Made by a program: the position numbers and the translations under genes. From the IMG/VR virus record IMGVR_UViG_3300042876_000208, positions 1-64,000 of that record: DNA of 64,000 nt. One strand, written 5' to 3'. Positions 7,669 through 64,000 of the stretch are shown here, piece by piece (the first letter of the stretch is position 1; each line of letters starts with the position of its first letter). This stretch comes from a virus. Its lineage: Duplodnaviria; Heunggongvirae; Uroviricota; Caudoviricetes. The notes below the pieces were generated by a model. It searched no databases. It saw nothing but the letters and a program-made list of their open reading frames with translations, and was not told the origin of the DNA.

Positions 7669-7681
7669 ATAGAGCCTCCTT

Positions 7682-10937: not shown

Positions 10938-10947
10938 AAAGTATCAA

Positions 10948-11874: not shown

Positions 11875-11883
11875 CGCTCCTCC

Positions 11884-13089: not shown

Positions 13090-13096
13090 ATTACTC

Positions 13097-14233: not shown

Positions 14234-14241
14234 AGTTTTTC

Positions 14242-15245: not shown

Positions 15246-15521
15246 CGTTAGCCTCCTTTAGCTAATAATACAGCACCGAGTATGCACATCAAAATCCACA
15301 GTGCAATCAAACCTCTTGATAACATATTGCCTCCTTAAATTCTCTTATCATGCTTGTTGGAGATATAGGTATCCAGCATAGTTGCGAATGTGTTGGCTAG
15401 AAAAATAATGCCCAGGCCAATCAAAATAGTTCCGAGGTCAGAAACATTATAATTTCCAGAATATATCTTATCCAGAACAAATTCAATTCTTTCAGTAATC
15501 CTTCTGTTCATATTACCTCCT

Positions 15522-17341: not shown

Positions 17342-17499
17342 ACCTTCTCCTGCTATAACTTCATTACGGACATTGCCGTAATACATCATTCGCATCAGAG
17401 CTGTACTACTTATACTACTCAGGGTTTAGAACACTCTATTTTTACTTTCGCGGGTCGCTAAATCCGCTGTGGAAGAATGTTCAAGAGAACCACCAGAGT

Positions 17500-17571
17500 G
17501 CCCTCGCAGGGAATCGAACCCTGATTGCCAATTTAGAAGATTGGAGCTTCTATCCATTGAGCTACGAGGGC
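17500..17571 (-). tRNA. tRNA-Arg (anticodon UCU)
   Basis: Hand-folded: acceptor GCCCTCG/CGAGGGC, D-arm, anticodon stem CCAAT/ATTGG with loop CTTCTAA (UCU), T-arm CAGGG-TTCGATT-CCCTG; 72 nt, no encoded CCA. Confidence 0.7.
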
Positions 17572-46559: not shown

Positions 46560-47160
46560 TCATAAGCTATAGCAGCATCAACTTCCTTAGCAAATCTTCC
46601 TAGATAGATTCTTTTTTTTTTAATATATTAAGTTGACTTTCCCATTGTCCAGTAGCTTTGAAAAAACAGACCCCAAAATATTTTGAAGTCGCATTTTTAT
46701 TCTTTTTTCCAAAAGCCCCGCACTCTGTATTTATTTTTCCCAAATGAGAAAGTGACATTTTTAGTTTTTCTTCTTTAGTATGCTTTCTACCGGTATTTTT
46801 TATGGATAGTTTAATTCTAGTTTCTTTAGAAACTTTTCTATTTAAGTTTCCTTCACCACCCATGGTAAGATTAAATCCAGTATTAAAAGTATTTAATTTT
46901 TGTATCCAAAATCTTTCTCTACGGCTTAACAATGAGTTTTCACATTGCTCTAGTATATAGAAGTTAAATTCTGCAATGCCGTATTTATTCCAAGAATTTT
47001 GAAGATATTTATTTTGATGACGATTTTGATTTAAGCATATAATATGACGATTCCATCGTTTTTGTATATTTATACTTTTTCCAACATATTTTTTATCAGT
47101 AATCTTGTTTTCTATGCAATAGATTCCAGATATTTTCTCTGAGGACATAGCCATATTATT
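46560..47160 (-). mobile_element. free-standing homing endonuclease gene insertion
   Basis: Selfish HEG between tail genes, lower GC than flanks. Confidence 0.5.
46600..47154 (-). CDS. GIY-YIG homing endonuclease (I-TevI/Seg-like)
   Basis: GIYCIENKITDKKYVGKS...KRWNRH...ERFWIQKLNT...GFN matches the GIY-YIG catalytic module; AT-rich; interrupts the tail gene array. Confidence 0.75.
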   Translation of the reverse strand: MAMSSEKISGIYCIENKITDKKYVGKSINIQKRWNRHIICLNQNRHQNKYLQNSWNKYGIAEFNFYILEQCENSLLSRRERFWIQKLNTFNTGFNLTMGGEGNLNRKVSKETRIKLSIKNTGRKHTKEEKLKMSLSHLGKINTECGAFGKKNKNATSKYFGVCFFKATGQWESQLNILKKKESI

Positions 47161-48557: not shown

Positions 48558-49010
48558 TTATTCTTTATCCTTCTCCTGTAACGTAATAATTATTCTATTA
48601 ACATCGGGAGCGCCTCGAAGATTTATTTTGTCAATTTGCATAACCCTACCATCTACAACTACATATTTAGTAGCGTTAACAATGTTGACAACGTCGGGGT
48701 AATAATTTATTCTTACTTGGCAATCACCAGTAAATTGTTGTCCTGCCGAGTACCAAGATAAATTTTCAGAATATCTCCAAGTAACATGACCAGAAATAGT
48801 AGCAGTATCAAGAATATTTAACCAATAGTATCCAGAGCAAACTGGACAAAAGGCATTAGTTGATGTGTTACTAACTGGGTCTAAGCTACAAATTGGACAA
48901 CCGGATGTGGCAACCACGTAATGAAACTCTACGGGTCTACCAATAGTTTCCAAAGTATTATTTAGAAATGAATCTATATTTGATTTATCTGGCCAGGGTA
49001 GTTTAGTCAT
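48558..49010 (-). CDS. Cys-rich hypothetical protein
   Basis: Start trimmed to internal Met (MTKLPW) to avoid 107-nt overlap; CPICS...CPVCSG motifs. Confidence 0.35.
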   Translation of the reverse strand: MTKLPWPDKSNIDSFLNNTLETIGRPVEFHYVVATSGCPICSLDPVSNTSTNAFCPVCSGYYWLNILDTATISGHVTWRYSENLSWYSAGQQFTGDCQVRINYYPDVVNIVNATKYVVVDGRVMQIDKINLRGAPDVNRIIITLQEKDKE

Positions 49011-50166
49011 AGAGTTCCTCAAACAATTTGTACCAAGTCTCTGAAATAGTAGACCACTGGTATTCTGGTGCTGTAAATTTATTAAATGCTTTCTCAGCGA
49101 GGTCATCACACAATTCTCTTTGAGAGTAAGCCATTTGCATTGCTGAGGCTACGTCCTCGGCTCTAACTAGACCACCTACGGTCATGATTCCCTCATGTAA
49201 CCATTTGGTTTTTACTGGGATGAATACGCCGCAACCTTTAAATAGTTCCGTACAAGCTGAGTGATTAGGAATTATTTGTAAAGCCCCGGTACTAGCGTGT
49301 TCAGTTGAAGTTAATCCCCAACCTTCACCTAATCCGGTATTTACGCCTACATTACAGCTATTGTAAATAATATTCAAAGTCTTTTCGGAAACTTGCTGAG
49401 GGCCAACGCTTACATTGCTTAGAATTAGTTTATCATCTATTCCTAATCTTACTGATAGTCTGGCTACGTCAATGTGCATATCGGTTATACCGCAGTGCAT
49501 ATAGATGTTTACATCTGGTTTGCCATCAGCAAATAGTTTGAAACCCTCTAGAGTCAGGTCAATTTTCTTTCTTGGTTGATTTCTATTAGCATTTAGAAAG
49601 ATAAAGTTATCGGTGGCTTTATTACCAAATACTGCTTTTCTAGCCTCTTTTCTATCTATCTTAAAGAAAGTCTTTGTATCAATACCATGAGGAATTACGG
49701 TTAGTTTTTCAGCTAATTCCGGTGCGGCTTTTAGAATTACATTCTTTCCAAATTGAGTGTATGCAACAACTCTTGAAACAATATCAAAATGCTGAAACCA
49801 ATCTGGGTCATGTTCTTCAGCATCTACTGGAATATATGTAACAATTTTGGGTAGAGTATCCTTGGGCCAAATTTGCTTAATAATTGTAAGCATTTGATTA
49901 ATAACCCAAGCATCGTTTAGAATAAAAAGAATGTCTATATCAGAATGTGTAAACTCTTTTATTCTACCTATACCATATAAATCCCCGCCTAGGGATGCAG
50001 GATAAACAGGGAATCTATAAGAATTGGGGTCACCTCTGTAGTTAATCCCCAATCCCGCAATATCTAGTTTATCTGTTAAGTTTTCAAAGATAGAACGATT
50101 TACTCGTTCAAATCCCGTCTTTGTTACCAAATCTCCCCAAACCATTACTTTCAATTTCTTATCCAT
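49003..50166 (-). CDS. GT-B glycosyltransferase (GT4/GT1-like)
   Basis: 387 aa; GLGEGWGLTSTEHASTGALQI matches the EX7E sugar-donor motif region of GT4 enzymes. Confidence 0.55.
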   Translation of the reverse strand: MDKKLKVMVWGDLVTKTGFERVNRSIFENLTDKLDIAGLGINYRGDPNSYRFPVYPASLGGDLYGIGRIKEFTHSDIDILFILNDAWVINQMLTIIKQIWPKDTLPKIVTYIPVDAEEHDPDWFQHFDIVSRVVAYTQFGKNVILKAAPELAEKLTVIPHGIDTKTFFKIDRKEARKAVFGNKATDNFIFLNANRNQPRKKIDLTLEGFKLFADGKPDVNIYMHCGITDMHIDVARLSVRLGIDDKLILSNVSVGPQQVSEKTLNIIYNSCNVGVNTGLGEGWGLTSTEHASTGALQIIPNHSACTELFKGCGVFIPVKTKWLHEGIMTVGGLVRAEDVASAMQMAYSQRELCDDLAEKAFNKFTAPEYQWSTISETWYKLFEELYD

Positions 50167-50192: not shown

Positions 50193-50663
50193 TTATGATG
50201 GGTCAGACCAATTGATTCTTAGTGGGATTGCACCGCGTTTGATTGGGGGCTTTAGATAATCGTAAAGTTCATTCCAATCTCTTTGCAACCCGGCATCTTT
50301 TGTTCTAGATTGCTCCAGGTTAGAATAAGAAAGTTCTGAATCTCTCCAGTTTCCCAAACTCCAACTTAGATTTTCTAACTGCCCTGACTTAATAATTATT
50401 GCGGCCATTAGGATTATAATCCATTGGTCTTTTACTTGAATAGTTGGGGGTGCAACTGTTTCCCAACTAGTATATACAGTACTTCTAGTTACATTTCCAA
50501 AATCATCGGAAGTATACTTATTTGACCACCATCTACTTAAGGCGGTTACAGCAGCTACCAATGAGGATAGTAACCATTCATCTAAATATCTATAACTTGC
50601 TGAATTAATATCACCAAGTTTAAGTCTCAAGGTAGGTATTAATTCTTCTAAAGTAGTTGGCAT
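50193..50663 (-). CDS. hypothetical head/connector-region protein
   Basis: 156 aa. Confidence 0.35.
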   Translation of the reverse strand: MPTTLEELIPTLRLKLGDINSASYRYLDEWLLSSLVAAVTALSRWWSNKYTSDDFGNVTRSTVYTSWETVAPPTIQVKDQWIIILMAAIIIKSGQLENLSWSLGNWRDSELSYSNLEQSRTKDAGLQRDWNELYDYLKPPIKRGAIPLRINWSDPS

Positions 50664-50675
50664 TAAATATCTCCG

Positions 50676-51155
50676 TTAGTCTTGCTTTTGTAGCTCAGAA
50701 ATTCTAGCCTCAATTGCCGCAAGGATTTTCTCTGATTTCTCATTTGCTTCTGCAATAGAAAGCATCTTGTAAAGAGTTTGAATATTTGTAACTTTGTTAA
50801 GCTTAGCTTGTAGCCCTAGGAATCTTTGTCCAAGAACCTCAAGTAGTTCCGTGTCGTTATAGTCATCAATGGTTCTTTCGGGTGCGGCGGTTGGTTTCTT
50901 ATATTCAATTAGAACACCATTGTCAAACAAACTTGCGTTCATATTATGAACAAACACATCTTGCTTGGTAGACCAAATATCCAAGATAGTCTTTCTTTCA
51001 TACTTTCTTGGGTCACCCTCTAGAAGTACACCCATTGGTTGGTCTGTGAAAGGGTCTAGTACCGTAAGATGTACCTTACCTAAAATAGTCTTGATATAAG
51101 ACTTAATAGGCTTACCTTCTTGCATTGCTGAATATAACTCTGTATTATTAATCAT
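50676..51155 (-). CDS. hypothetical protein
   Basis: 159 aa; AAGGAG RBS. Confidence 0.35.
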   Translation of the reverse strand: MINNTELYSAMQEGKPIKSYIKTILGKVHLTVLDPFTDQPMGVLLEGDPRKYERKTILDIWSTKQDVFVHNMNASLFDNGVLIEYKKPTAAPERTIDDYNDTELLEVLGQRFLGLQAKLNKVTNIQTLYKMLSIAEANEKSEKILAAIEARISELQKQD

Positions 51156-51233: not shown

Positions 51234-52445
51234 TTATACGATTGCCGATTGTAAAACGGGGCGGCTCAGATCGTGGACTTTTATTGCTCCGGCATTGGCA
51301 TAGTGCAGTAAGTCAGCTTGATAGTAGGTTGTGTTGTTGAATGCCCCAGGCGCTCCAATATCGGGGGCGTTACAAATCTCGACCAATCCGTCTAGAAACG
51401 AATGGTCATTACGCATCAACGTATTAAAATCTTGCCGCTTTTGTTCATACCCCTGGCTTATTGCTGCGCCGTCGCCTGCTGGTTGCAAAGTATAGCCAAT
51501 GACCTTATTGGCTCCTGCCGTGCGTCGTGCGGCTATGTAAGTTTGCAGACTGGCGTAATGTTCTGCGGCTGTGATTGGACGGCGCAGGTCATTCGTGCCG
51601 TAGTAAACAAATAGGATATTGTTATAGCCGCTTGTAAACAGGGGGTCGACGCGAGTCGCTACATCTGCGTTGGCTTCGGCCAGTCCGTATCCACTTACCC
51701 CCTTATTGGCCCACATACACTGTCTAAAATCAGCGTGAAGTAAATAAGGCCACGTATTGAGAAAAGTCAGACCGGAGCCGATAGTTAGACTATCCCCGTC
51801 AAAAATGATCAGATTGGTACTAGGGTTGTAGAATTTGAAATCGTTAAACATGTATGCAGAAATTCCCCACAACCCCGCTAGGGTTTCATTTTGATTGGCG
51901 GTGACACCGGTGGCTTTTATCATTGCCCCGTTGACATTTGCCATTATGGTCGTGCCTTTAGCCAATACCGAGCAATAATAGCTCGCCCCGGCTGTAAGCG
52001 TCATTGGTAAATTTGCCTTACTTGTAAATGTCCCGTTCACATTCTGGAATATATGTGCAGCGGGAGTCCCTGTGTCATACAAATATAAACCATTCCAGTT
52101 GGTACTGTTTTTCCCCCTTACCACCAACCCGCCGCTTTGTGCCGCCCCGGCAGGCTTGATAAGCTTCCCTTCGATAAGCATATCTTTTTGTCCGGCTGGG
52201 ATTGTGGCAATGTTATGATCTGTGGCCCCGGCCCACTTTGCGGAATTGGATAATATTATCCAGTCCGCTGCGCCAGTCCAGGCAGCATTGATAGTATTTG
52301 TCGGGGCTGGCGTGTGCGAGCTTAGCAGGGCATTGTCTGTCCCCGTAAAAGCATCGTGGAACAGCGGGGAAACGGGCGTAAAAACATTTTCTGCTGCTCC
52401 CCCGCCCAACATCCCCAACGTTCTATGTCTAAGAGTTCTTAGCAT
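51234..52445 (-). CDS. SGNH/GDSL hydrolase with N-terminal beta-rich domain
   Basis: IIFDGDSLTIGSG (block I GDS), YYGTNDL (block III), DLLHYANAG (block V DxxH); GC-rich gene. Confidence 0.55.
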   Translation of the reverse strand: MLRTLRHRTLGMLGGGAAENVFTPVSPLFHDAFTGTDNALLSSHTPAPTNTINAAWTGAADWIILSNSAKWAGATDHNIATIPAGQKDMLIEGKLIKPAGAAQSGGLVVRGKNSTNWNGLYLYDTGTPAAHIFQNVNGTFTSKANLPMTLTAGASYYCSVLAKGTTIMANVNGAMIKATGVTANQNETLAGLWGISAYMFNDFKFYNPSTNLIIFDGDSLTIGSGLTFLNTWPYLLHADFRQCMWANKGVSGYGLAEANADVATRVDPLFTSGYNNILFVYYGTNDLRRPITAAEHYASLQTYIAARRTAGANKVIGYTLQPAGDGAAISQGYEQKRQDFNTLMRNDHSFLDGLVEICNAPDIGAPGAFNNTTYYQADLLHYANAGAIKVHDLSRPVLQSAIV

Positions 52446-52447
52446 AA

Positions 52448-52858
52448 TTACTCCTCAATGCCGTATAAAGTTCCTGTGATTGTTGCTGCGGCAGAAGAAG
52501 TTGCTTTCAAAACACTATTGATTGCTCCAAGTAAAACACCATTGCCCAAATCGAAGGAATAAGGACTATCAACAGCTAGTTTAGGAGTTTGATAAACATC
52601 TGTACCTGCCGAATTATCTTCAAATAAAACTGAAACAGCGGCAGATACGGAAATAGAACCACCCATTAAACGAACTTTTTTACCGCTTGCGGGTGTCCAA
52701 ACAGTTGCAATAGATGTAATCGTAACAGCTTTTAAAGTCTTAAACGTAGATGGTACTTTTAGACTTATGTCTGTATAAGGACTATAAGAGCCGTCCCCGT
52801 TATCTTTATATTTTATTTTTACACTTTCATCCCCATCGGGAAAAATTACATCGGCCAT
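52448..52858 (-). CDS. hypothetical protein (possible decoration/Ig-like)
   Basis: 136 aa, Ser/Thr/Ala-rich beta composition. Confidence 0.35.
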   Translation of the reverse strand: MADVIFPDGDESVKIKYKDNGDGSYSPYTDISLKVPSTFKTLKAVTITSIATVWTPASGKKVRLMGGSISVSAAVSVLFEDNSAGTDVYQTPKLAVDSPYSFDLGNGVLLGAINSVLKATSSAAATITGTLYGIEE

Positions 52859-53064: not shown

Positions 53065-53985
53065 TTAAGCAATCTTAATTACGTACACTCCATCGGCGTT
53101 ATCAATCACCATACCAAATTCTTGGTAGAGTTCTAGATACCACTGTGGAGGTGTTGGCTCCATATCTGTCCATTCCTTGCTCTTTACTTCACCATAAGTG
53201 ATAAAATCACCTACTTTATTACCGATAACAAGAATCTTGTCAGCGGGTAGTAGTGGAGTATAGTCATCTGGGTTGTTGTAAACCTGTTCTAGAGCAATAA
53301 TGGGCGCACCATAATATCTACCTAGCCAGCCAGTTGACATGATTTCACGAATGTTTTCTGGAACTACTTGGCTAACACCAGTACCATCGGTATAACCTGC
53401 ACCGAATGTAGTAATGGGTGTTAGAGCAGAACGTAGACCTACAACGGCCTTTACACCACCAGTTGTCTGGTTAATTCTATCAATGGCGTTCTTTAGCATT
53501 GTTGCTGTAAGAGTTGCACCAGTTGTATAGTTTAGAGGTGTATTTGTTGGAGTCCAGATTGTTGAAAGAGCAGTAAAGACCTTTCCTAGATAGTAGTCAC
53601 GTAGCTTAGCCATCATTTCAGTTCTAATTTCACCAACTGTTCCAATGTCACCATTATCTAGTTCCCATTGGTTAGCGGTTACTTTAATATCTGCACCGTC
53701 AAGAATGTAGTTCAATCTCTCAGATGTAGTGATTTCGTGTGCTAGGTGAATTGAACCAGGAACTAGAGTGTGTACCTTTAGCCCCTTGCGGATTTTCTTT
53801 ACAAGAGAGTCACCCTTGTTAAGAGCCTTTGAGTTCAATAATAGACTGATATAGTCTGTAGTAATGTGTTGTGGTTGAATCCATTCAACCATTAGCTGTG
53901 CAAGAGCTGCCTTGTCACCGTTTTTAACTAGCTCAGCAATAGCTTCCTTTAGTTTGATTTCGTCCATGTTATTAAAATCCTCCAA
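53065..53985 (-). CDS. major capsid protein (positional/compositional)
   Basis: 306 aa, between scaffold/protease and strong terminator. Confidence 0.5.
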   Translation of the reverse strand: MEDFNNMDEIKLKEAIAELVKNGDKAALAQLMVEWIQPQHITTDYISLLLNSKALNKGDSLVKKIRKGLKVHTLVPGSIHLAHEITTSERLNYILDGADIKVTANQWELDNGDIGTVGEIRTEMMAKLRDYYLGKVFTALSTIWTPTNTPLNYTTGATLTATMLKNAIDRINQTTGGVKAVVGLRSALTPITTFGAGYTDGTGVSQVVPENIREIMSTGWLGRYYGAPIIALEQVYNNPDDYTPLLPADKILVIGNKVGDFITYGEVKSKEWTDMEPTPPQWYLELYQEFGMVIDNADGVYVIKIA

Positions 53986-53992
53986 GTATCTT

Positions 53993-54562
53993 TTAGTAGA
54001 TACGAACAGTTAGTTTACCAGAATCAGCATCAAAGTCTTCAGTTACACCGATAACTTGAATGTCATAGGTATTGCTTTGAACTAACTTACCTTCGTTTCC
54101 ACCACTATAACCAACTGTTAGATAAGCACCTGTTAATTTAATCGCAGAACTATCTACGTATCCACCAGATGGAATAGTGAAAGTACCGTGAGTATAGCCT
54201 AGGCTTGGTCTACCAGAAGGAATTGTCTGGCTTTCTGGGCCGCTAGAGTGATGTGTCATATAGATGGTGGCGGATAAAGGCATATTTGCGCCCTTTGACC
54301 AACCACCGCGAGTAGCAAAGCTACCATCGAGTGTAGGTAGGGTTTCGTAGAATGGTGTTGGTTGGTTATCAACTGCCCATGTGATGCAATACTTAGCTGA
54401 GGCAGCTTCTGCGGCTGTAGTAGGAACTTTTACGCCTACAACATCCTCTTTGCTACCAAAGTCTGTTGAAAAAGTATGAGGAACGATGCAAACAAATCTA
54501 CCCTCAACTACATCAGCAGTAGGAATCACACCAATAACGTCTTCGAATTTATTGATTTCCAT
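53993..54562 (-). CDS. head protein (decoration or minor capsid)
   Basis: 189 aa, Gly/Thr-rich, between scaffold and capsid genes. Confidence 0.35.
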   Translation of the reverse strand: MEINKFEDVIGVIPTADVVEGRFVCIVPHTFSTDFGSKEDVVGVKVPTTAAEAASAKYCITWAVDNQPTPFYETLPTLDGSFATRGGWSKGANMPLSATIYMTHHSSGPESQTIPSGRPSLGYTHGTFTIPSGGYVDSSAIKLTGAYLTVGYSGGNEGKLVQSNTYDIQVIGVTEDFDADSGKLTVRIY

Positions 54563-54579: not shown

Positions 54580-55827
54580 TTATTTAGCCTTTAATGAGTT
54601 TAAGGCTTTAACTATTTCTTTAATATCAGATTCTGCAGCGCGTCCTTTACCACTTAGGTTGGGGATTCTTTCGCTTGCTGATGCTGATTGGTTGTTGTTA
54701 TTTGCGCTAGAAAAAGCTACAAGTTCTTGTAGCATAAATTCAAGAGCCTTCTCGTCTAGTGAAAGTAGAAATTCTCTTTTTTCGTTAAAGAATTCTTCAT
54801 CTTTCTTAAGTCCAGCTTCTTCAAACTTTGTCTTGATTGATGCAAATTTTTCATTTGCAGCTTTCTCATTCTCAATGCTGGATTTGAATTCTCTTAATGA
54901 AACAAGTTCTTGTTCCTTCTCTGTTAGAGCATTTGCTTTCTCTTCAATCAAAGCTTTATTAGTAGCTAATTCAGCTTTAATGTTTTCTAGCTCTTGCTTT
55001 AGAGTCTCAAGTTCGTCCAATTTAGTATCCTCCGTAATATCTTGAACTACAGATTCTTCACTGTTTGCTAGTAATTCATTGGCTTTTGCGGTTAGCTCAC
55101 CTTTTGTTTCATCCGGCAAATCAGAGTTTTCTATATCCTCTAAACATGAGGATAGTAGTTCTGTATCAATGTTCCCATCTCTATCCTTGAAGGGAAATAA
55201 TTTTAACCCATCATCATTAGCAAACAAAAATGCAGAAGTAGGAAGGTCGTCTACACCATCTACTTTCTTTGCTGCTACTGCGAGTATAGGGGTTCTATCA
55301 CCATATGCAGGTCTACCAACGATAGTCGAGGCTTTTAGAACTACACCTCTTAGAATTTCAACTCCGTCTTTAAACTCAGAATCTCTATAAAGAACTTCCC
55401 AAGAAAGTCTTAGTTTCTTAGATTCCTTATAAGTATTCTTAATAAATTTAATATCGTTGATTCTCTCTTTAGACCAAAGAGCCGCTAGTCCAACAATATA
55501 ATTAACACCGTCTTTTACTTCCTCTTTCAAATTTGTGATAACACCAAGAGGTTCAGAGTTCTTATGAGTTTCCTCAACCGCACCCTTAGCCATTTTAATT
55601 GGCATATAAATTCCGGTCTTAATTAAATTCGCAAACTCCTCTTGTGGAATTTGCTGACTATTCCCATTGGGTTGGTCATCTGTCAAGACAAACTTTGCCC
55701 AAGTGATTGCTGGATTAATATTTATAGCAGAAGTGGCTTCTTTGAATTCCTCTTTGGCCTCATTCTCTGTTAGTAATTCTAACACAAAATCGGATTCTTT
55801 GCTAATAATTGAGTCATTTTCGTTCAT
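54580..55827 (-). CDS. prohead protease/scaffolding protein
   Basis: 415 aa, globular N-half plus long acidic coiled-coil C-half (ELETLKQELENIKAELATNKALIEEKANALTEKEQEL), directly after portal. Confidence 0.45.
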   Translation of the reverse strand: MNENDSIISKESDFVLELLTENEAKEEFKEATSAININPAITWAKFVLTDDQPNGNSQQIPQEEFANLIKTGIYMPIKMAKGAVEETHKNSEPLGVITNLKEEVKDGVNYIVGLAALWSKERINDIKFIKNTYKESKKLRLSWEVLYRDSEFKDGVEILRGVVLKASTIVGRPAYGDRTPILAVAAKKVDGVDDLPTSAFLFANDDGLKLFPFKDRDGNIDTELLSSCLEDIENSDLPDETKGELTAKANELLANSEESVVQDITEDTKLDELETLKQELENIKAELATNKALIEEKANALTEKEQELVSLREFKSSIENEKAANEKFASIKTKFEEAGLKKDEEFFNEKREFLLSLDEKALEFMLQELVAFSSANNNNQSASASERIPNLSGKGRAAESDIKEIVKALNSLKAK

Positions 55828-57404
55828 TATTTTGCTCCTGGCTTAGTTTGTGTACTTGGCTTAGCCGCTGGTTTTGGTTGTGGTTGACCAGGTTTTGGTG
55901 TCTGGCCGGGTGTAGTTTGAACTTGGTTTCCAGCATTTGGTGTTAGACCAACTTGAGGAATACCAGATTGAGTAATCTCTTCTTGTTCTTGGGTTCTCAA
56001 ATCAATCTGTTCTTTGAAATCATAACCAAGAATTTCATCGAAGGCATCTCTACTCAAACCACCAGTTTCATATAACTTAGATAGAGCGGCAATCAAATCA
56101 GCAAACTTATGTAGATTTAAAGCCTTGAAGTCTAGAGTTGGGGGTGTCTTAAACTTATTAGCCAAAGCAACTTCCTCACAGACTCTACGCAATACTTCAA
56201 TAATCTTACGTCTAAAATTTTCCATTGTCTTTATAGGGCCAATCATAGCCATCTCGGGGTCACCCGCAGCTGTTCTAGATGCTTCACCTACAATCAATGT
56301 TTGAGGGAATCCTAAAGCATACAGGATTTCCATATTAATATCTCTATACTTTGCATCATTAACTAGTTCAGTAGTATCAGGGAAAATCCACTTAATATCC
56401 ACTGTATGACTAGTCAATAGTTGGAATATTCTTTCCAAATCCTTTTTAGAATTGAAACGCCAAGTTAATTGGTTTCTCAATGAGTCCACAAACTCTTGGT
56501 CTTCTTCACTATCGGTAATTGGAAATTCATCACTACCCATCTTAACGTGTAAGATAGCACCAATTACTTTGTCAGCAATGGAATAGTCCATCTGGCGAAG
56601 TTTTCTCTTGTGTTTTAGAACATCAAGAGCTGGTGCAATAAAAGGTGTTGGATATGGATTATCAGACATATATCTACGTCTAATAACATTTTTATTATAA
56701 ATGGGGATTTCAGTAACACCCGCTAGAACATCTTTTACAAACTCGGGAAACTTTGCTTTCATTTGTTTGAAAAGTTCTTTGTTCTCTTCACCGTTAGGGT
56801 ATGTACCATTATTCTTAATGAAATAGGCTACATCGTCGGGAACTTGAACAAAGTAATCGGGTTGGTCGGACATTAGAGAAGTATAGATTACTATACTCTT
56901 TGGGTCACGCACGAACATTGAAATGGGAAGTTCTAGTGTTGAATATTTCTTAACCCCTAAGCTAAGGATTTCTTCTTTGGTAGCCTTTCCTAGAGCAAAC
57001 TCAGGAACTACTAAACCAGAAAGTAGAAACTCTTGTGCCATAGATTCAGCAAATTCAAGTAGCTTTGGCTTAAGTGATGTGAATACTGTGAACTCATTAT
57101 CAGATAAACCGTTCTTAGAAAAGACTAAATCATTAATCCCGATTTCAACCATTCTATTTACAATTGAGGCTACGAGTGGTTCGTTCTTATAAAAGAATCT
57201 ACACTCATTTACTAGGCTTACAAAGTAGTCTAGATTAGTCTTTGATGACACATCATCCATCTTAACAGTCCAAGGATTGGCGTTGTTAATTTGATTTCCT
57301 GATGTAGCCGCCTCTGCTATATTAAGTCTGGATACTGTTTTATTAGTAGACTCAATAGGCTCTTCACTTTCTTCTTCAAAATTTAACTTATCAATTTCTT
57401 CCAT
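55827..57404 (-). CDS. portal protein
   Basis: 525 aa, immediately downstream of terminase large subunit; Pro/Gln-rich flexible C-terminus. Confidence 0.6.
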   Translation of the reverse strand: MEEIDKLNFEEESEEPIESTNKTVSRLNIAEAATSGNQINNANPWTVKMDDVSSKTNLDYFVSLVNECRFFYKNEPLVASIVNRMVEIGINDLVFSKNGLSDNEFTVFTSLKPKLLEFAESMAQEFLLSGLVVPEFALGKATKEEILSLGVKKYSTLELPISMFVRDPKSIVIYTSLMSDQPDYFVQVPDDVAYFIKNNGTYPNGEENKELFKQMKAKFPEFVKDVLAGVTEIPIYNKNVIRRRYMSDNPYPTPFIAPALDVLKHKRKLRQMDYSIADKVIGAILHVKMGSDEFPITDSEEDQEFVDSLRNQLTWRFNSKKDLERIFQLLTSHTVDIKWIFPDTTELVNDAKYRDINMEILYALGFPQTLIVGEASRTAAGDPEMAMIGPIKTMENFRRKIIEVLRRVCEEVALANKFKTPPTLDFKALNLHKFADLIAALSKLYETGGLSRDAFDEILGYDFKEQIDLRTQEQEEITQSGIPQVGLTPNAGNQVQTTPGQTPKPGQPQPKPAAKPSTQTKPGAK

Positions 57405-57408
57405 ATTT

Positions 57409-58962
57409 TTATCCTACCCATCTAGCTAGCATGAGTTTTTTCTTTTGTTGTCTATTTTGTGAGAATTCATACACAAGATAATAAGCACCCGTGGCACAGA
57501 GTAGAGCCGATGTAAAGTGGTCTTCACCTTTTTGACCGCCCTTTGGAGTTAAGGTTTTATACGAAATGTCCCCGGTTGTTGGATTCTTTGTATAAGTCAT
57601 TCTTTCCAACTCGGTAATCATATCCGGGTCTGTACTAGAATATACTAGTCTATGTGTATTTGAATAGTCTTGCAAAATAGAAACGGTTAATGGTTTAGTC
57701 TTTACCTTAATTTCCTCACCGTCAGAATTTGTTCCCATAACTGTCCAAGATGAAAAGTCAATAGGGATTAATCTTTCTGCAAAGTTTTTGTGGATAAAGT
57801 CTTTATGTTCCCAAAGATTCTGTACTACGGACATACCCGCATTTCCTTTATCAATGCCTAGTAGTCCTGGTTCAAACTTAGAGTCTATAAAGTCAATAAT
57901 CTTTTCCTGAATTGGATAAGATACTTTAGTTAATTTTATTCTAGCATGGAATTTAAGTCGCTCATGCTTATCGAAATACAAAATAACTATCGCGGTTGGC
58001 TCGGTATAACCTAAGTCAATACCCACTAGTACATTTGAATTCTTATCTGGAACTCCGGGAATCGCAGATACTTTTTGGAAATATTCACTTATGTTTTCAG
58101 TTCTAATACCATCAATTTCTAGATTGTATACGGGATAAGTTTCCACCAAGAACATTTCTCTATCAAATAATGAGAATACTGGCTTACCGTGTTGACCCAA
58201 GAAATAGTGAACAAAGTCATCACTATCTTCACCACCATATTGTTCTATGGCTCTTGTCTTGTCATCTTCCGTAATTCTAGGATTCATGTAAGCACTAATT
58301 CTATGCTTACTATAGTTAGAATTTTCCATGTCGGCGTTATAGAGAACATTCTTTTCTCTAAGTCCGGTAGGTACACCCGCGACTATTTCCCTAAATCCGG
58401 GTGTAAATGTATTCAAGGATGGCTGCATTTCATTGAAAGCATTATGTGGGTAATATCCACCTTCATCCACTGTAATATAGGGTGTATGCAAACCAATTAG
58501 GTTTGAACCATTTCCCGACTGGCCAGCAATACGGCAAAGTAAAACCGCTGAATTTAATAGTGAGATTGTGTATTCCGAACTATTAATTCCCCCGTTCTTT
58601 GATATGAATTGTTTTAGAAATGAATTTGTTCTAAAGTGCCTAATTAGATTTTTGAATACTGGTTCAAGGTGAACTTTATTAGGAACGGTGTATAAAACAT
58701 AGTCATCGGGATAAACTTTAAAGGTTAAAATCCATTCAAATAACGAGGTTAGTGTGACCGTTTTACCTGTGGCTCTAGCTTGGCATAAGGAAACAAATGA
58801 ATTGAAATCCCCTAATACTTCTCTTTGATACCATGAGAATTCAAACGGTTCATCATATTTTGGGTCTAAATCTATATTGTAGATAAATTCCATGCACAGA
58901 ACTGGGTTTCTAAGTATCTCATATAAAATTAAATCATCTCTTGAGACTTTTTCAACTATCAT
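57409..58962 (-). CDS. terL: terminase large subunit
   Basis: Walker A QARATGKT, Walker B YITVDEGG, nuclease-domain acidic motifs VGIDLGYTEP and GEDHFTSAL. Confidence 0.85.
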   Translation of the reverse strand: MIVEKVSRDDLILYEILRNPVLCMEFIYNIDLDPKYDEPFEFSWYQREVLGDFNSFVSLCQARATGKTVTLTSLFEWILTFKVYPDDYVLYTVPNKVHLEPVFKNLIRHFRTNSFLKQFISKNGGINSSEYTISLLNSAVLLCRIAGQSGNGSNLIGLHTPYITVDEGGYYPHNAFNEMQPSLNTFTPGFREIVAGVPTGLREKNVLYNADMENSNYSKHRISAYMNPRITEDDKTRAIEQYGGEDSDDFVHYFLGQHGKPVFSLFDREMFLVETYPVYNLEIDGIRTENISEYFQKVSAIPGVPDKNSNVLVGIDLGYTEPTAIVILYFDKHERLKFHARIKLTKVSYPIQEKIIDFIDSKFEPGLLGIDKGNAGMSVVQNLWEHKDFIHKNFAERLIPIDFSSWTVMGTNSDGEEIKVKTKPLTVSILQDYSNTHRLVYSSTDPDMITELERMTYTKNPTTGDISYKTLTPKGGQKGEDHFTSALLCATGAYYLVYEFSQNRQQKKKLMLARWVG

Positions 58963-59810
58963 CTATTTCTCCAATATTCAATAATGTTTCCCTCACTTTC
59001 TCTAGAACCTATATAAAGATTGGGTACTTTTGTTTCTCTACCCGGCTCACCGCCCCACTTAGAGATATAATATTCTCTATTGTTTTGGAAATAGTGGGAA
59101 TTACTTCCACCGCCTCCTTGATGGATGGTGCGTGACCAAAAATGAAAGAAACGGGCGTTTCCTAGAGAGCAGAATCTTAATCCAGTTCTAACCATTCTTT
59201 GAGCATAATCATTATCAATAAAATAAGCAGGGAAAAAAGCTACATCGGTATATCCAACGGCATTGAATACACTTTTCTTATATAGACATAGATTTTGAAT
59301 ATCATATAATTGCATATTCGCAATATCTAGCTTGGGTGAGTATCCAGTAAACTTATTCCAAAATTTAGATGAGAAATCATTTACTACAAAGTTATCACCG
59401 GAAAAGTATTGTCTTGTTTCGGGATGTTCTGCTACTAAGCTTCTAACATCATATTGTATAGCACTAATAGCATCATAATTGCTTAAGTTAGCAAGTGTGA
59501 TTAGTGAATCTACTGCATAAGGATAGGCAACTATATCATTCCCCGCTAGGATTAGATTATCATAGTCATTTTCCTTCCAAGCATAATCATAAATATCATT
59601 CACGCTTTTAGGAAATCCATAATTATTAATATGTCTAACAAATGGAATATTTGCTTCTTTTAGATAATTAGCGGTAACCTCATCATCTGGTTTCCCTATA
59701 ACACAAAAGAAATCCACGGGAATTTTAGTGGTTTCCATGATAGACTCTATGGCTAATCTAGTAAACTGAAAGTTACCAAAGGTTACAATTCCTATTAAGT
59801 TTTTGCTCAT
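58959..59810 (-). CDS. GT-A fold glycosyltransferase (GT2-like)
   Basis: N-terminal IGIVTFGNF...RLAIESI like GT2 Rossmann start; acidic DxD-like LILAGNDIV. Confidence 0.45.
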   Translation of the reverse strand: MSKNLIGIVTFGNFQFTRLAIESIMETTKIPVDFFCVIGKPDDEVTANYLKEANIPFVRHINNYGFPKSVNDIYDYAWKENDYDNLILAGNDIVAYPYAVDSLITLANLSNYDAISAIQYDVRSLVAEHPETRQYFSGDNFVVNDFSSKFWNKFTGYSPKLDIANMQLYDIQNLCLYKKSVFNAVGYTDVAFFPAYFIDNDYAQRMVRTGLRFCSLGNARFFHFWSRTIHQGGGGSNSHYFQNNREYYISKWGGEPGRETKVPNLYIGSRESEGNIIEYWRNR

Positions 59811-60526
59811 CCGGTTATACTCCTTATAAACTCTACAACCTGCGGTGTTACTAGTTGTTCAATTGGTGGCTTAGAAAATCCACCACCAGCAATATGTAGA
59901 AGTTTAATCCGTTTATTATTTAATTCTAGATGGTCATTTACAACTACAATGTTTTTCCACACATCCCAATAAGTTACAGTTCCTTCAATAAAGGATGTAC
60001 CATAATATATGTTTGACTCTACCGGGTCTAATAGTTTGCAGTTATATTTACCTGAATAAAATACTATATTATAAGTATCATTCTCACCATAGGGATATTC
60101 ACCACCATGCTCTGCTGTTAACTTATTCCATTCATCACAAAATTGTTCCGATGAGATTGAGTGTACGCCTACATTAATAAATTTATCCCAGGCTATTCCA
60201 GGTATAGGAGTTAATCCTGGGCCAGTTGCACTTCGGTTGTTATCACTATTATTTCTACATCCACGGGCATCTGTAGTATCATCGAATAGTTCATCTAGTC
60301 TATCTACAATGATTACATCAGAGTCTATATGTGTTACTGTGGAATATTTTTTAAATAGTGGTAATTCTAGTTTTGGATATATGTAGTATCCAGTTACTAA
60401 TTTGATAACATCCTCTCTATTTGGAACTTCGAGATTTACTTCTGGATGAAAATGAAGAAGACTTTTAACCATTCTATCGTGTTCAAATTTAAAATCTATA
60501 AAGAAACTAGATACACACTTGCTCAT
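59807..60526 (-). CDS. putative nucleotide-sugar glycosyltransferase (DxD)
   Basis: THIDSDVIIV DxD-type motif. Confidence 0.35.
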   Translation of the reverse strand: MSKCVSSFFIDFKFEHDRMVKSLLHFHPEVNLEVPNREDVIKLVTGYYIYPKLELPLFKKYSTVTHIDSDVIIVDRLDELFDDTTDARGCRNNSDNNRSATGPGLTPIPGIAWDKFINVGVHSISSEQFCDEWNKLTAEHGGEYPYGENDTYNIVFYSGKYNCKLLDPVESNIYYGTSFIEGTVTYWDVWKNIVVVNDHLELNNKRIKLLHIAGGGFSKPPIEQLVTPQVVEFIRSITG

Positions 60527-61377
60527 AATTCCCCCGCTATAATGCTTTCAATCTCGCTTAGGTTAGTAGAAGGCGACCAAACTTTTTTAGCTTTAGTAAC
60601 TTGATTTGAAACAAAAGACGAAGCTTCTTTTCCATACGTGAAAGATATAAAGGTTTTATTTGGGTTTTCCCAGTTATCCTTAGTACCACAAAAACAAAAT
60701 GGGCCTGATTTTCTACCTACAATTACATCACAATACGAGCTAAGTAAAGCAACCTCATTCAAATCAAATCCGTTTTTCTTTATTAAATCACCTGTGAAAA
60801 CAACATTGTTATATTTAATTTCCATATTGCTGGTTATGTAGAACGTTACGTTTTGAAAATTATGTGCTAAGAAATTAATCACTGGTGTAAAATCAAAATT
60901 CTCTGCTTGACAGGATTGAACTGGGCCATTACAAATCAATACTTTTTTACCACTTGCTACGTTGGTTATCCAATCAGTTTTATAGAACGAATAGTCTATA
61001 TTTGGAACATAGTCATAAGGAACTCCGGGTAATTGCTTATCGCTAAATATTCTTAGAATATCATTAAACATTCTAAAGCTTTGTTCTACAACACAACCTA
61101 CATTTGGTAGTACGTATTGACTATCTCTACCAATCCAAGTATTAATAAATCTAGTTTCTACATGCACATAGCTTCCGGTACGTTCTAAGAACAAGTGACT
61201 ATTCTCGCTAGTGATAGGTACATAAATAATTGGTAAATCTTTTAGAACTTCTTCACCCTTAGCGTGGGCGAACATATAGCTTAAGCCGGGAAATAAATTT
61301 ATAATCTCTTGTACGAAACGTCTTGTCTCAAACAAATCCCCCGCGCCATACTGATTGTAAAACATTATACTATTCAT
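60523..61377 (-). CDS. hypothetical protein in glycosylation operon (possible transferase)
   Basis: 284 aa, translationally coupled to neighbours. Confidence 0.35.
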   Translation of the reverse strand: MNSIMFYNQYGAGDLFETRRFVQEIINLFPGLSYMFAHAKGEEVLKDLPIIYVPITSENSHLFLERTGSYVHVETRFINTWIGRDSQYVLPNVGCVVEQSFRMFNDILRIFSDKQLPGVPYDYVPNIDYSFYKTDWITNVASGKKVLICNGPVQSCQAENFDFTPVINFLAHNFQNVTFYITSNMEIKYNNVVFTGDLIKKNGFDLNEVALLSSYCDVIVGRKSGPFCFCGTKDNWENPNKTFISFTYGKEASSFVSNQVTKAKKVWSPSTNLSEIESIIAGEL

Positions 61378-61378
61378 T

Positions 61379-61603
61379 TTAGTATGTCTTATCTGTTACA
61401 GTAATATCCGAGTCGCCAAGACGTTTATCAATCTCTATCATAAGTTCATTGCGTCTTTTATTTAAGGTTTGAATATCTTTAGCAACTTGTACAACTTTAT
61501 CCTCTGGTGAGGACATTAGAATATCTTGCTTTAAGAAACACTTGATACTAGTGGTGATAAGACTATCTATTAACTCTGCGGTTGATTTCATTCCTACGTT
61601 CAT
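61379..61603 (-). CDS. hypothetical protein
   Basis: 74-aa ORF. Confidence 0.3.
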   Translation of the reverse strand: MNVGMKSTAELIDSLITTSIKCFLKQDILMSSPEDKVVQVAKDIQTLNKRRNELMIEIDKRLGDSDITVTDKTY

Positions 61604-61607
61604 GTTT

Positions 61608-62186
61608 TTACTCCTTTATTTCCGCAACAAGAATATCATTATTTCCATTTGCGGAGTCCATATAAGAAATTTTGTATTTTGGATTTATATCCAAAATATA
61701 ATGTATTACCAAATCCTCTGAAAACTTTCCCCAATCCTTTACAATTTCACCGGGTATATTCGTTTGACCAAATACACGCCTATCATCAATTAAAATAGTA
61801 TGTGTTTTAATCGGATGCTCTTTTATTATTTCTAGTTCCTGTAGTAGGGGAACTTCAATCGCGGCTAATTGATGATTATCCACAATAGCGGGACTTTGAG
61901 AAAAGAAATGTCCATCCAAAAAGAATGTGATTGGTTCATTTATTGGTTCTATAATCCAAGGTAGAACTTTTAGAGAGTCTCCTAAAAATAAGGAGACTCT
62001 GTTATTATCTGCAAATCTATTAAAAGAATAGTTGAAATATTTTTCAGATATTTCAATGCTAATAACCTTTTTAAAACCTGCTTCTAAGGCTCTTTGAACA
62101 CCACCACCCATAAAAGTTCCGGTTTCAACAAAGATATTATTATTTGTAAATCTTGTTAATGAATTTTCAAGTATGCTCAGGCTCAT
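61608..62186 (-). CDS. class-I SAM-dependent methyltransferase (TylF/CmcI-like sugar O-MTase)
   Basis: FVETGTFMGGG resembles the E-x-G-x-x-x-G-G-S motif of TylF/cephalosporin-hydroxylase family. Confidence 0.45.
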   Translation of the reverse strand: MSLSILENSLTRFTNNNIFVETGTFMGGGVQRALEAGFKKVISIEISEKYFNYSFNRFADNNRVSLFLGDSLKVLPWIIEPINEPITFFLDGHFFSQSPAIVDNHQLAAIEVPLLQELEIIKEHPIKTHTILIDDRRVFGQTNIPGEIVKDWGKFSEDLVIHYILDINPKYKISYMDSANGNNDILVAEIKE

Positions 62187-62409
62187 ATGCTCCCCAAAAA
62201 TAATCCTCTATTTCCTTGAAAGTATCCGCGATAGCTTGTCCATGAAAAATTCTTTCATGTGGAAAATCTAAGGGTGGATACCAAACTATAAACAAAAGGC
62301 TTTCGTCAGTATTTTTTAAGAAATATTCTAGAAAACCTTTATCCGCTGAGTATAACACTACAAACTTGTTATGCCCATACTTTTGTATAAACTCTTGGAA
62401 TTTTGTCAT
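62167..62409 (-). CDS. hypothetical protein
   Basis: 80-aa ORF. Confidence 0.3.
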   Translation of the reverse strand: MTKFQEFIQKYGHNKFVVLYSADKGFLEYFLKNTDESLLFIVWYPPLDFPHERIFHGQAIADTFKEIEDYFWGAYEPEHT

Positions 62410-63077
62410 TGTAAACTCTCCGGCATAATCTCTGGTTTGTTAGAACTCTTAGTCTCTAACATTTGTTTTGTAGTTACCTTGACTACGGTATTACAAACCC
62501 CACCGTCTACCTCACGTTTACAAATTAATTCAATTTTATTTTGTTGTTCTGGATACTGTGTCCAGATAGTTCCAAGTAACATCTTGCATTTTGGGCAAAA
62601 AATATATTGTTCTTTTAGCTCATGAAACTTTTTAGCTTTCTCTTTTAGAGAGTCGATATAGTTAATAAGCGAAGTCTCTTGGTCTGACTTTCTAATCTTA
62701 CGTGTGATTTTCAAGTCATTTTGTAGAGATGAAATATCACGTCTTAAGTCTGACATAACCTTATTAACTTTGTCTAGCTTTACGATAGTATCGTCTGTGA
62801 TACCTTCCTTTCTAAACTTATAAACTATTTGTTCATAATCCTCAAGAGAAATCAATGCTTGAATTAAGGCTCTTAGAGTTTCATGGTCATTCATTTTCAT
62901 ATCGGAAATGTCATAATCCTCAGTGAATTTCTTTAGCTTAAGTTCAATTCTTTTTTCAAACTCTTGTGAAGGTTTTACATCATCCTCTTTCTTTAACATT
63001 AGTTCTTCAAAATCATCCTCACTCATATTCTTATATTGAGGAAGATTTCTCTGACGTTTCCATTTACCGTTATTCAT
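62406..63077 (-). CDS. coiled-coil protein with C-terminal zinc ribbon
   Basis: 223 aa; CPKCKML...C..C. Confidence 0.4.
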   Translation of the reverse strand: MNNGKWKRQRNLPQYKNMSEDDFEELMLKKEDDVKPSQEFEKRIELKLKKFTEDYDISDMKMNDHETLRALIQALISLEDYEQIVYKFRKEGITDDTIVKLDKVNKVMSDLRRDISSLQNDLKITRKIRKSDQETSLINYIDSLKEKAKKFHELKEQYIFCPKCKMLLGTIWTQYPEQQNKIELICKREVDGGVCNTVVKVTTKQMLETKSSNKPEIMPESLQ

Positions 63078-63139
63078 AATTCTCCTTTAGTTTCATACAA
63101 TAATTTTACCATATTGTACTAATTGTTGCCAATTATTGA

Positions 63140-63337
63140 CTATTTTCCACCATCCTTCCATAACTTATAACACCTATCTAAATTTGTAGAAAGATAGCCT
63201 ATTAAATCCTCTGTGACTATCTTTTTACATTCCTCATGTAAAATCAGGTTCATATAGGGTCTTTCGATGGGTACAAAAATCCTACGCTCACCTTCCTCAA
63301 AAGGTTTTTCGCAGTGATGACAAACTTTCTTTATCAT
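63140..63337 (-). CDS. small zinc-ribbon protein
   Basis: CHHCEKP ... HEECKK. Confidence 0.4.
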   Translation of the reverse strand: MIKKVCHHCEKPFEEGERRIFVPIERPYMNLILHEECKKIVTEDLIGYLSTNLDRCYKLWKDGGK

Positions 63338-63852
63338 AGTTCCTTCAAGTAATATTTTATTCTATTTGGATATAATTTAGATTTATTTTCCACTAGAGAG
63401 TTTACATGACTTTCACCTGCGGCATAGATATATCTAACTTTAGTTCCACTAAAATATTCTATGTTTTTGTAAAAAGCCACATCGCCAACAAACTTTCTAA
63501 GTGTATATTTTGTTTCGTCTAGTTGAGTAAACTTTTCTATATCAATCTTTGCAATACTATTTTGAACTGCAGCATATAAACTAGTTCCATCAAATTGCTC
63601 ATAGTAAATATTATAGGAAATCAAAACACCGTTAAAGTATAAACAAGTTCCTATAATACCTTTAGTATTAAGTTGTTTAATTAAAGACGGCGCAAATTTT
63701 GGATAGGATAGGTCTTGCTTGTTAGCTTTCCACAATTCAAATAGGGCTAGCATATTTTCTTTATCTGAGTCATCGGCTACTTTGAAAGTTAATTCACCTA
63801 GTTTATTCACCTTATTAATGTCATGCGCTGAACGCCAAACGCTTCTATTCAT
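63334..63852 (-). CDS. hypothetical protein
   Basis: 172-aa ORF. Confidence 0.4.
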   Translation of the reverse strand: MNRSVWRSAHDINKVNKLGELTFKVADDSDKENMLALFELWKANKQDLSYPKFAPSLIKQLNTKGIIGTCLYFNGVLISYNIYYEQFDGTSLYAAVQNSIAKIDIEKFTQLDETKYTLRKFVGDVAFYKNIEYFSGTKVRYIYAAGESHVNSLVENKSKLYPNRIKYYLKEL

Positions 63853-64000
63853 GTGTTTCCAAGACTCATTAATATCACAAAAGAAATCAGAATCGGAGTA
63901 TTCAGTTTCCTCTCCAAATATTGAAATTATTTGCTTTACTATATTATTTCTTTGTAGAATATCTAGAACGGTGATAGCATTGTCATCGACATCATTTAAA

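Follow-up and report, generated by a model that had tools for sequence, protein, structure and literature searches.

Glycosyltransferase and methyltransferase genes between the likely small and large terminase genes of an uncultured tailed phage, a candidate system for virion glycosylation

The 64,000-nucleotide (nt) stretch of DNA analysed here, referred to as the window (positions 1 to 64,000 of the IMG/VR record IMGVR_UViG_3300042876_000208), comes from an uncultured tailed phage. Directly upstream of the gene for the large terminase subunit (terL), it carries a run of closely packed genes for putative glycosyltransferases and a putative methyltransferase. An initial annotation had placed these genes in the slot of the small terminase subunit (TerS) and had proposed that, together with a glycosyltransferase of family 4 (GT4) and an SGNH/GDSL hydrolase encoded in the head-tail module, they glycosylate the virion or edit host surface glycans. 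Our analysis indicates that the enzymes lie between a likely terS gene, designated G, and terL, and comparison with related loci favours the virion over the host envelope or DNA as the acceptor. The phage genome is ~93.5 kb, and its contig coordinates wrap around in exact-protein look-ups, indicating a circular assembly. Sequence beyond the window was taken from the metagenomic contig JGI 3300044712 Ga0453684_0000977 / Logan SRR24010765, and ~83 of the 93.5 kb were seen through Pfam matches. All genes of the studied region are on the minus strand. From gene I down to terL, the following features were found (aa, amino acids; SAM, S-adenosylmethionine; loci other than the window carry L numbers):

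63334..64000, minus strand: 3' part of gene I; the whole gene encodes 320 aa and reaches ~64296 in window-equivalent coordinates (L002 4667-5629)
63140..63337, minus strand: H, 65-aa Cys/His-rich protein, kept directly upstream of G in many relatives
63103..63132, minus strand: promoter-like site TTGGCA-18-TAAAAT, TG-extended, in the 62-nt gap upstream of G; a hint only
62406..63077, minus strand: G, candidate TerS; helices at the N-terminus are followed by a long helical hairpin, and a C4 zinc ribbon forms the C-terminus
62167..62409, minus strand: F, 80-aa protein without a homologue in relatives, specific to this phage
61608..62186, minus strand: E, 192-aa class-I SAM-dependent methyltransferase-like protein
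61379..61603, minus strand: D, 74-aa DUF4254-like protein, directly upstream of C; it travels with the gene for a GT9-like enzyme
60523..61377, minus strand: C, glycosyltransferase of the GT-B fold, closest to GT9 (heptosyltransferase-like)
59807..60526, minus strand: B, predicted GT8 glycosyltransferase (retaining, GT-A, DxD), 239 aa; accessory
58959..59810, minus strand: A, predicted GT2-like GT-A glycosyltransferase, 283 aa, translationally coupled to terL
57409..58962, minus strand: terL (phrog_2, 1.3e-16; tblastn match to an annotated TerL)

The open reading frames (ORFs) named in the initial annotation are all present on the minus strand at the coordinates given there, and the translational coupling that it had described could be measured from G through terL. 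Overlaps of 4 nt (ATGA) join I to H, G to F, C to B, B to A and A to terL; the gaps are 1 nt between D and C and 4 nt between E and D; and F and E share 20 nt. The sole real intergenic gap in the run, that of 62 nt, separates H from G, and in a promoter and terminator scan of the region promoter-like sites were no more frequent than in shuffled sequences. The run also includes the small ORFs D (74 aa), F (80 aa) and H (65 aa). An ORF given as 63334..63852 does exist, but position 63852 is an internal ATG of the 320-aa gene I, which runs off the end of the window. Gene I has no match in Pfam or the PDB, varies between relatives and is missing from four of them. The accessory island between the likely terS and terL measures 3.4 kb and consists of six genes (F, E, D, C, B and A). 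The possibility that the island is compositionally foreign was rejected, as its GC content of 32-35% is similar to that of the flanking genes.

The initial annotation had seen no obvious TerS candidate and had suggested checking whether 62406..63077 encodes a divergent one. G is likely the small terminase subunit, and the decisive evidence for this is synteny. When IMG/VR was searched with G alone, regardless of glycan genes, 51 loci were obtained that hold both G and terL; G abuts or overlaps the start of terL in 14 of the 51, and an island of ~1.6 to 10 kb parts the two genes in the remaining 37. In this phage, G lies upstream of terL, as a terS gene would, at a distance of 3.4 kb and in the same coupled run. 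It has >240 homologues at 50-77% identity with four invariant cysteines. At the same time, G has no TerS match in Pfam, PHROG or NCBIfam, a PDB profile search returned nothing, and Foldseek against viral models gave no significant TerS match; membership in a described TerS family is therefore not supported. G might instead be a DksA/TraR-like zinc-finger regulator of late transcription, with the true TerS being another small ORF or absent. We consider this improbable, as G homologues share 4 nt with the terL start even in distant relatives, and G is conserved as well as terL and the capsid gene. As G is likely TerS, the enzymes are inserted between terS and terL rather than occupying the TerS slot, and a terS-island-terL architecture replaces the earlier description. 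The converse possibility, that one of the transferase ORFs is a disguised TerS, was looked at and rejected: none shows TerS homology, and all carry clear glycosyltransferase or methyltransferase signals.

The enzyme calls made upstream of terL, and those of GT4 and the SGNH hydrolase, proved real, except that one label, discussed below for E, did not hold. The protein encoded by A in the window has no Pfam match when used alone, but three of five A orthologues match Glycos_transf_2 (PF00535; best 1.3e-5), and A matches phrog_29879, "galactosyl transferase", at 6.5e-10. In PDB searches the single sequence was uninformative and a five-sequence profile gave nothing; a 31-sequence profile was needed, with which chondroitin synthase (6.8e-9), GalT1, heparosan synthase and further GT2 domains were matched. 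By sequence similarity, A is predicted to be a GT2-like GT-A enzyme. B falls below the Pfam cutoff when used alone (16 vs 24.3 bits), and one of its homologues carries PF01501. A 24-sequence profile of B matches the GT8 domain of WbbM at 2.2e-8, AgtA at 5.3e-5, and glycogenin and LgtC at ~0.01, and the motif H66-x-D68-x-D70 is conserved (D68 in at least 90%). This similarity and the conserved DxD motif predict that B belongs to GT8.

The fold of C is nearest to those of the lipopolysaccharide (LPS) heptosyltransferases WaaC and WaaF, placing it within the GT-B/GT9 fold. C differs from WaaC/WaaF and from the protein heptosyltransferase TibC in being ~40-60 residues shorter, with 9-14% identity; neither C nor any of its 74 homologues has a Pfam match, Glyco_transf_9 included, and a PDB profile search with C gave nothing, so that membership in GT9 is not supported by sequence. 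The description that appears closest is a GT9-like GT-B transferase. This reading is independently supported by the neighbouring gene, since D resembles DUF4254 (matched in Pfam by 12 of the 17 members of the D family, best 1.7e-5), a domain genomically linked to the RfaF heptosyltransferase in Flavobacteria (PMC9425974). Among deposited phages, C homologues were seen only in the very large uncultured genomes LR756501/LR756503/LR756504 (636-735 kb), at ~31-32% identity over the full length.

E is probably a sugar O-methyltransferase. Its family counts 5560 representatives and has no Pfam model; elsewhere, the E domain is fused to GDSL, GT6, GT11, O-FucT, FkbM and sulfotransferase domains. A single-sequence PDB search was uninformative, while the E profile matches the O-methyltransferase YrrM (2e-4) and COMT, with weak similarity to family-3 O-methyltransferases in its N-terminal, SAM-binding part and further weak matches to PIMT (1.4e-3) and Erm (1.5e-4); residues E21, G23 and G27, in a putative glycine-rich SAM-binding motif I, are invariant. 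The previous label of E as TylF-like was dropped, as neither Pfam nor NCBIfam gives a match to TylF or Methyltransf_24. Homologues of E occur in cyanomyoviruses and in an M. avium record. The highest 19-residue Kyte-Doolittle score in the transferases and the methyltransferase is 1.34, with 1.6 being the rule-of-thumb level for a membrane helix; these enzymes have no membrane segment. No flippase, polymerase, ligase or polyprenyl-phosphate transferase was seen among the precomputed or run Pfam matches.

Downstream of terL, the packaging and head genes continue into the head-tail connector genes, where GT4 and the SGNH hydrolase were both identified, as had been claimed:

55827..57404, minus strand: portal protein (phrog_2739, 2.8e-16)
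54580..55827, minus strand: 415-aa head-module protein with a faint YonD_N match
53993..54562, minus strand: 189-aa Ser/Thr-rich head protein, between the 415-aa and capsid genes, conserved in relatives
53065..53985, minus strand: major capsid protein, YonB family (PF27364 YonB; phrog_16565 and phrog_2522)
52448..52858, minus strand: 136-aa Ser/Thr-rich protein, not found in relatives, part of a capsid-to-connector insertion
51234..52445, minus strand: 403-aa protein with an N-terminal domain of unassigned fold and a C-terminal SGNH/GDSL hydrolase domain
50193..51155, minus strand: two conserved small genes (159 and 156 aa) at the head-tail connector position; the order p159-p156-GT4 is conserved
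49003..50166, minus strand: GT4-family GT-B glycosyltransferase, between the 156-aa gene and the 150-aa zinc-finger gene
48558..49010, minus strand: 150-aa Cys-rich (zinc-finger) protein; in every relative its gene is coupled to the GT4 end

GT4 matches phrog_2170 at 8.8e-37. Its profile matches B736L of the chlorovirus NY-2A (PDB 3oy2) at 1.3e-41 over the full length, the next match being only at 1e-5; the matches at this level are to further GT4 enzymes, consistent with membership in family 4. With the single sequence, Pfam Glycos_transf_1 remained below the cutoff. B736L binds GDP-mannose (PMC9614988). All 14 loci covering the GT4 position carry the gene, which is part of the core of the lineage and does not change its place; it is coupled to the next structural gene, with a GT4-to-p183 gap of -22 to +12 nt. 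The hydrolase domain matches Pfam Lipase_GDSL_2 at 9.4e-12 (46.2 bits vs a cutoff of 32.9; residues 217-386) and belongs to that family. Between the capsid and 159-aa genes, 16 of 19 related loci have a slot of only ~70 bp, and this slot holds insertions in this phage (the 136-aa and SGNH genes) and in the relatives L094 and L097. The insertion of L097 (17007-18671) encodes a 555-aa protein that ends in a GDSL domain (1.2e-18), with an N-terminal part different from that in this phage.

The assignments of terL, the portal and the major capsid gene come from remote PHROG/Pfam matches only. The portal C-terminus (window 55827-55970) is a Pro/Thr/Gln/Lys-rich low-complexity tail of ~45 residues (QTTPGQTPKPGQPQPKPAAKPSTQTKPGAK). 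Its position and its coiled-coil C-terminal half suggest that the 415-aa protein is a prohead protease/scaffold fusion. The 189-aa protein contains 20% Ser plus Thr, with 15 Ser, Thr or Pro residues within a 30-aa window, and may be a glycan acceptor or a decoration protein. A tape measure protein and a GH25 lysin are also encoded.

Relatives were collected with A as the seed (41 loci) and with G as the seed (51 loci holding both G and terL), and ~90 related loci were compared; an alignment of the C family proved too divergent for use as a seed. The gene arrangement is far beyond chance. In the 41 A-seeded loci, the usual order is H, G, variable genes, C, A, terL, portal, 415-aa, 189-aa, capsid, 159-aa, 156-aa, GT4 and 150-aa gene, and the order C-A-terL recurs among the ~90. 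C adjoins A in 32 loci, and the gap between A and terL is within ~20 nt in 27 of 33. The accessory genes are B, F, I, the SGNH gene and the 136-aa gene; B was seen in L094/L181 and L230 alone among the surveyed loci. When 68 proteins encoded in the islands of 15 relatives were sorted by their Pfam matches, the census yielded sugar C-methyltransferases (11), GDP-mannose 4,6-dehydratase/epimerases (8; best 2e-134), FkbM methyltransferases (6), RmlD-like proteins (4), DegT aminotransferases (3), ATP-grasp proteins (3), radical SAM/B12 proteins (2) and a sulfotransferase (1), a predicted repertoire of the surface-glycan type.

In the ~90 loci, glycan genes are found at several sites but always within the packaging/head module. 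The commonest site is that between terS and terL; others are upstream of terS (L216), before the head genes (L004), after the portal gene together with dehydratase, epimerase and DegT genes (L123-L126), and contiguous with GT4 between the connector genes (L005). In L005, the C-A pair directly adjoins GT4 in the head-tail module, which substantiates the connection that had been drawn between the site upstream of terL and the head-tail site.

The best reading of these data, for which we see about an even chance, is the cytoplasmic glycosylation, with methylation, of virion proteins. Based on it, we propose the following model: the late packaging/head operon would start at terS (G) and continue through terL into the head genes; the soluble enzymes would be made late, alongside the structural proteins; host nucleotide sugars would feed the stepwise construction, in the cytoplasm, of a short oligosaccharide directly on the virion protein(s); a hydroxyl of one of the sugars would be capped by the methyltransferase; O-acyl groups, whether on the virion glycan or on host glycans, may be trimmed or transferred by the SGNH hydrolase; and tailoring genes would be swapped at the same hot spot among relatives, giving each strain a different glycan. 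Direct stepwise glycosylation of a cytoplasmic acceptor, when and where the structural proteins are made, is the simplest model; the enzymes have no membrane segments, and no flippase, polymerase or polyprenyl-phosphate transferase was seen. The capsid protein and two Ser/Thr-rich proteins of the head module, of 189 and 136 aa, are possible acceptors. A stronger version, which we put forward only tentatively and think somewhat more likely wrong than right, is that a widespread lineage of uncultured ~90-100 kb phages coats its capsid with a strain-variable methylated glycan that in relatives is also deoxy-, amino-, C-methyl- or sulfated, with the core GT4 and the GT9-like/GT2-like pair acting as the builders and the terS/terL junction serving as an O-antigen-like diversity locus for the tailoring genes.

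The cassette of cluster O mycobacteriophages is the closest functional precedent for this reading. As described in those passages of PMC11600133 that cite Freeman et al. 2023, these phages encode an O-methyltransferase followed by three tandem glycosyltransferases, and both the capsid and the tail tube are modified. Cluster O (Corndog-like) and cluster F mycobacteriophages resemble the present phage in having a methyltransferase with tandem glycosyltransferases, in the use of soluble cytoplasmic enzymes and in being lytic tailed phages. Tandem glycosyltransferases with an O-methyltransferase, a probable one in this phage, are encoded with late/structural genes in both; modification of structural proteins is reported for the mycobacteriophages and proposed here. 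In contrast to the mycobacteriophages, the families here are GT9-like, GT8, GT2-like and GT4, the genes lie at the terS-to-terL site with a separate core GT4, and tailoring is hypervariable in relatives.

A second comparison is with chloroviruses and mimiviruses (PBCV-1 A064R and others; NY-2A B736L), as the homology of GT4 is specifically to B736L/A546L. Among the genes of relatives of this phage are those for GDP-mannose 4,6-dehydratase, epimerase/reductases and sugar methyltransferases, and enzymes of these kinds are encoded by chloroviruses as well. Chlorovirus glycans are made by virus-encoded rather than host-encoded enzymes (PMC9614988). The present phage differs in being a bacterial virus of ~93 kb, without sugar-nucleotide synthesis genes in the regions seen. 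Comparable cassettes beside packaging/head genes are also present in two cultured phages with unrelated capsid genes. In the Synechococcus siphophage S-CBS4 (gp014-gp016; NC_016766, L173 9049-11415), three genes lie between those for the portal and the head protease. The first encodes a homologue of GT4, with 96% of the query aligned at 35% identity; the next, a "galactosyl transferase", resembles A in the C-terminal part of the latter (E 4e-10; 35% identity across 79 aa); and the third encodes a SAM methyltransferase. However, the capsid protein and methyltransferase of S-CBS4 are unrelated to those here, and it has no GT9-like or GT8 gene. We know of no characterisation of the function of this cassette. 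In the Tetrasphaera phage TJE1 (L174 4923-10266), genes for a nucleotidyl transferase, an epimerase, a methyltransferase and a GT4 homologue are located upstream of terS-terL.

Several points weigh against glycosylation of the virion. Ser/Thr-rich C-terminal extensions have been described for mycobacteriophages, and in this phage neither the capsid protein nor the candidate major tail protein of 395 aa has an obvious extension of this kind. The classical association of GT9-type enzymes and DUF4254 is with the LPS core, and this would point to a lipid or envelope acceptor. When A, B, C and E (by tblastn) and GT4 were used to search 50,697 phage records, no mycobacteriophage was matched, and the enzymes thus show no sequence homology to that system. 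No nucleotide-sugar synthesis genes of the phage's own were found in the regions seen, and the GT4 homologue of the cyanophage S-EIVl adjoins a primase gene, not structural genes. For B736L the acceptor is unidentified, and the capsid glycans of NY-2A contain no mannose (PMC9614988); glycosyltransferases acting on phage DNA are also encoded near terminase genes (bioRxiv 10.1101/2023.12.21.572611).

The alternative that survives best is remodelling of the host envelope, in which the cassette would be an auxiliary metabolic island whose soluble transferases, working at the inner face of the membrane, modify the capsule or teichoic acid of the infected cell, its LPS core or a lipid-linked intermediate, and thereby alter the receptor, for example to block superinfection or to keep progeny from being trapped on debris, with the SGNH esterase also modifying the receptor. 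This is consistent with the nearness of the C fold to the LPS heptosyltransferases WaaC/WaaF, with the DUF4254 domain of D and its link to RfaF in Flavobacteria (PMC9425974), and with the best match of B being the O-antigen enzyme WbbM. LPS-core transferases likewise have no membrane helices, hypervariable glycosyltransferase islands are common in aquatic phages, and the homologues of E adjoin asparagine synthase in cyanomyoviruses. However, the genes form part of the late packaging/head operon and show translational coupling with it, whereas for receptor masking one would expect an early operon. The island shifts between sites and yet stays in the head module across the ~90 loci, GT4 is fixed between connector genes in 14 of 14 loci, and no flippase, ligase or polyprenyl-phosphate transferase was seen. 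We hold envelope remodelling to be unlikely, though it is the likelier of the alternatives to virion glycosylation.

Hypermodification of DNA, with a mono- to trisaccharide being built on a modified base before or during packaging as a protection against restriction, is a serious alternative, though of low probability in our view. The island does lie between the two terminase genes, an amino-type DNA methyltransferase-like gene is situated five genes upstream of terS, and a dCMP deaminase is encoded elsewhere in the genome. Known phage DNA glycosyltransferases span GT-A, GT8-like secondary and GT-B enzymes, can add heptose and sometimes adjoin terminase/structural genes (bioRxiv 10.1101/2023.12.21.572611). 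The DNA clusters of Pyle et al. in that work are similar to the present island in having tandem GT-A/GT8-like/GT-B transferases akin to LPS/teichoic acid enzymes. But those clusters are defined by a source of 5-hydroxymethylcytosine or 5-hydroxymethyluracil (5hmC/5hmU), that is, a C5-methyltransferase plus 5mYOX or a ThyS homologue (bioRxiv 10.1101/2023.12.21.572611), and no such source was found in the ~83 of 93.5 kb seen here: a ThyS-like hydroxymethylase, a TET/JBP dioxygenase and a C5-cytosine methyltransferase are absent from the Pfam matches, although a divergent enzyme could be concealed among the Pfam-less proteins. In a relative, the syntenic replication region likewise showed no enzyme of a 5-hydroxymethylpyrimidine pathway. 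The nearby methyltransferase carries the motif SPPY, of the N6A/N4C type and not C5; the GT4 profile has no match to the T4 alpha- or beta-glucosyltransferase at E <= 0.01; the island contents of relatives (C-methylated, amino and sulfated deoxy-sugars) resemble surface glycans; and the island is never found in the replication module.

Our literature search found no paper on this lineage or on the terS-island-terL architecture. Virion glycosylation encoded by phages or other viruses is already known in kind; what is new here is the hypervariable glycan island that splits the terminase genes, the GT9-like/DUF4254 pair, and the core GT4 shared with chloroviruses. In the literature found, phage virion glycosylation is documented for actinobacteriophages only. 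If the virion is indeed the acceptor, then: glycan coats would be common and fast-diversifying in environmental phages, with enzyme sets partly shared with giant algal viruses; bacteriophages would have an equivalent of the glycan shields that giant viruses build autonomously, with selection acting on the particle "serotype" in the environment; and there would be a bearing on the recognition, adsorption, grazing and inactivation of phage particles in nature, and on the engineering of defined surface glycans. Whatever the function, the analysis offers a likely TerS assignment for a large uncharacterised family (>240 members) and a GT9-like assignment for a Pfam-less family, and the splitting of terS and terL by a recombination hot spot is a caveat for automated terminase annotation.

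With regard to the phage as a whole, no close relative was found among 50,697 deposited phage genomes, and among cultured phages and IMG/VR nothing close to the window was found by blastn or by single-sequence TerL and A protein searches. A scan of a genome collection with G, made for the host, returned only two contigs in bins of metagenome-assembled genomes (MAGs), namely L171 (Brevinema andersonii MAG, DYKD01000020.1) and L172 (Bathyarchaeota MAG, JAUWDF010000001.1). These bins are from very different organisms; both contigs are probably mis-binned phage contigs and give no reliable host.

Upstream of H and terS (L002 2556-5629, ~63334-66400 window-equivalent) lie a gene for a 372-aa DNA methyltransferase-like protein with the SPPY motif, a gene for a 331-aa PP-loop ATPase with weak DUF7411/tRNA_Me_trans/QueC matches and a C-terminal CxxCxxC, and then gene I. 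The closest relative, L006, is without the PP-loop ATPase and gene I and has a PALP enzyme in their place, making this another variable slot. Within the window, a GIY-YIG homing endonuclease gene (46600-47154; Pfam 2.8e-10 plus NUMOD3) is inserted amid the tail genes; a 641-aa Laminin_G_3 protein (30569-32494) adjoins the large tail proteins and is likely the receptor-binding protein; the GH25 lysozyme (28963-29760) is likely the endolysin; a Band_7/SPFH protein is encoded at 22695-23615; and the sole tRNA of the window, tRNA-Arg(TCT), is at 17498-17571. The GC content is 42-46% at window positions 4000-15300 vs ~35% elsewhere, and this part encodes an Amidoligase_2 protein, a class-II glutamine amidotransferase (GATase_4/6) and two Peptidase_C26/GATase proteins (its genes include 13097-14233, 11884-13089, 14640-15245 and 6142-6747), the product of which could be a peptide-like modification or a metabolite. 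To the left of the window start, on the opposite strand (L009 10620-19914), a divergently oriented block encodes a ribonucleotide reductase large subunit, MazG, a Toprim primase, an HNH endonuclease, the dCMP deaminase and a DUF2828/DUF7788 protein, and on the other side of this block (L010) are genes for DnaB and PDDEXK nucleases.

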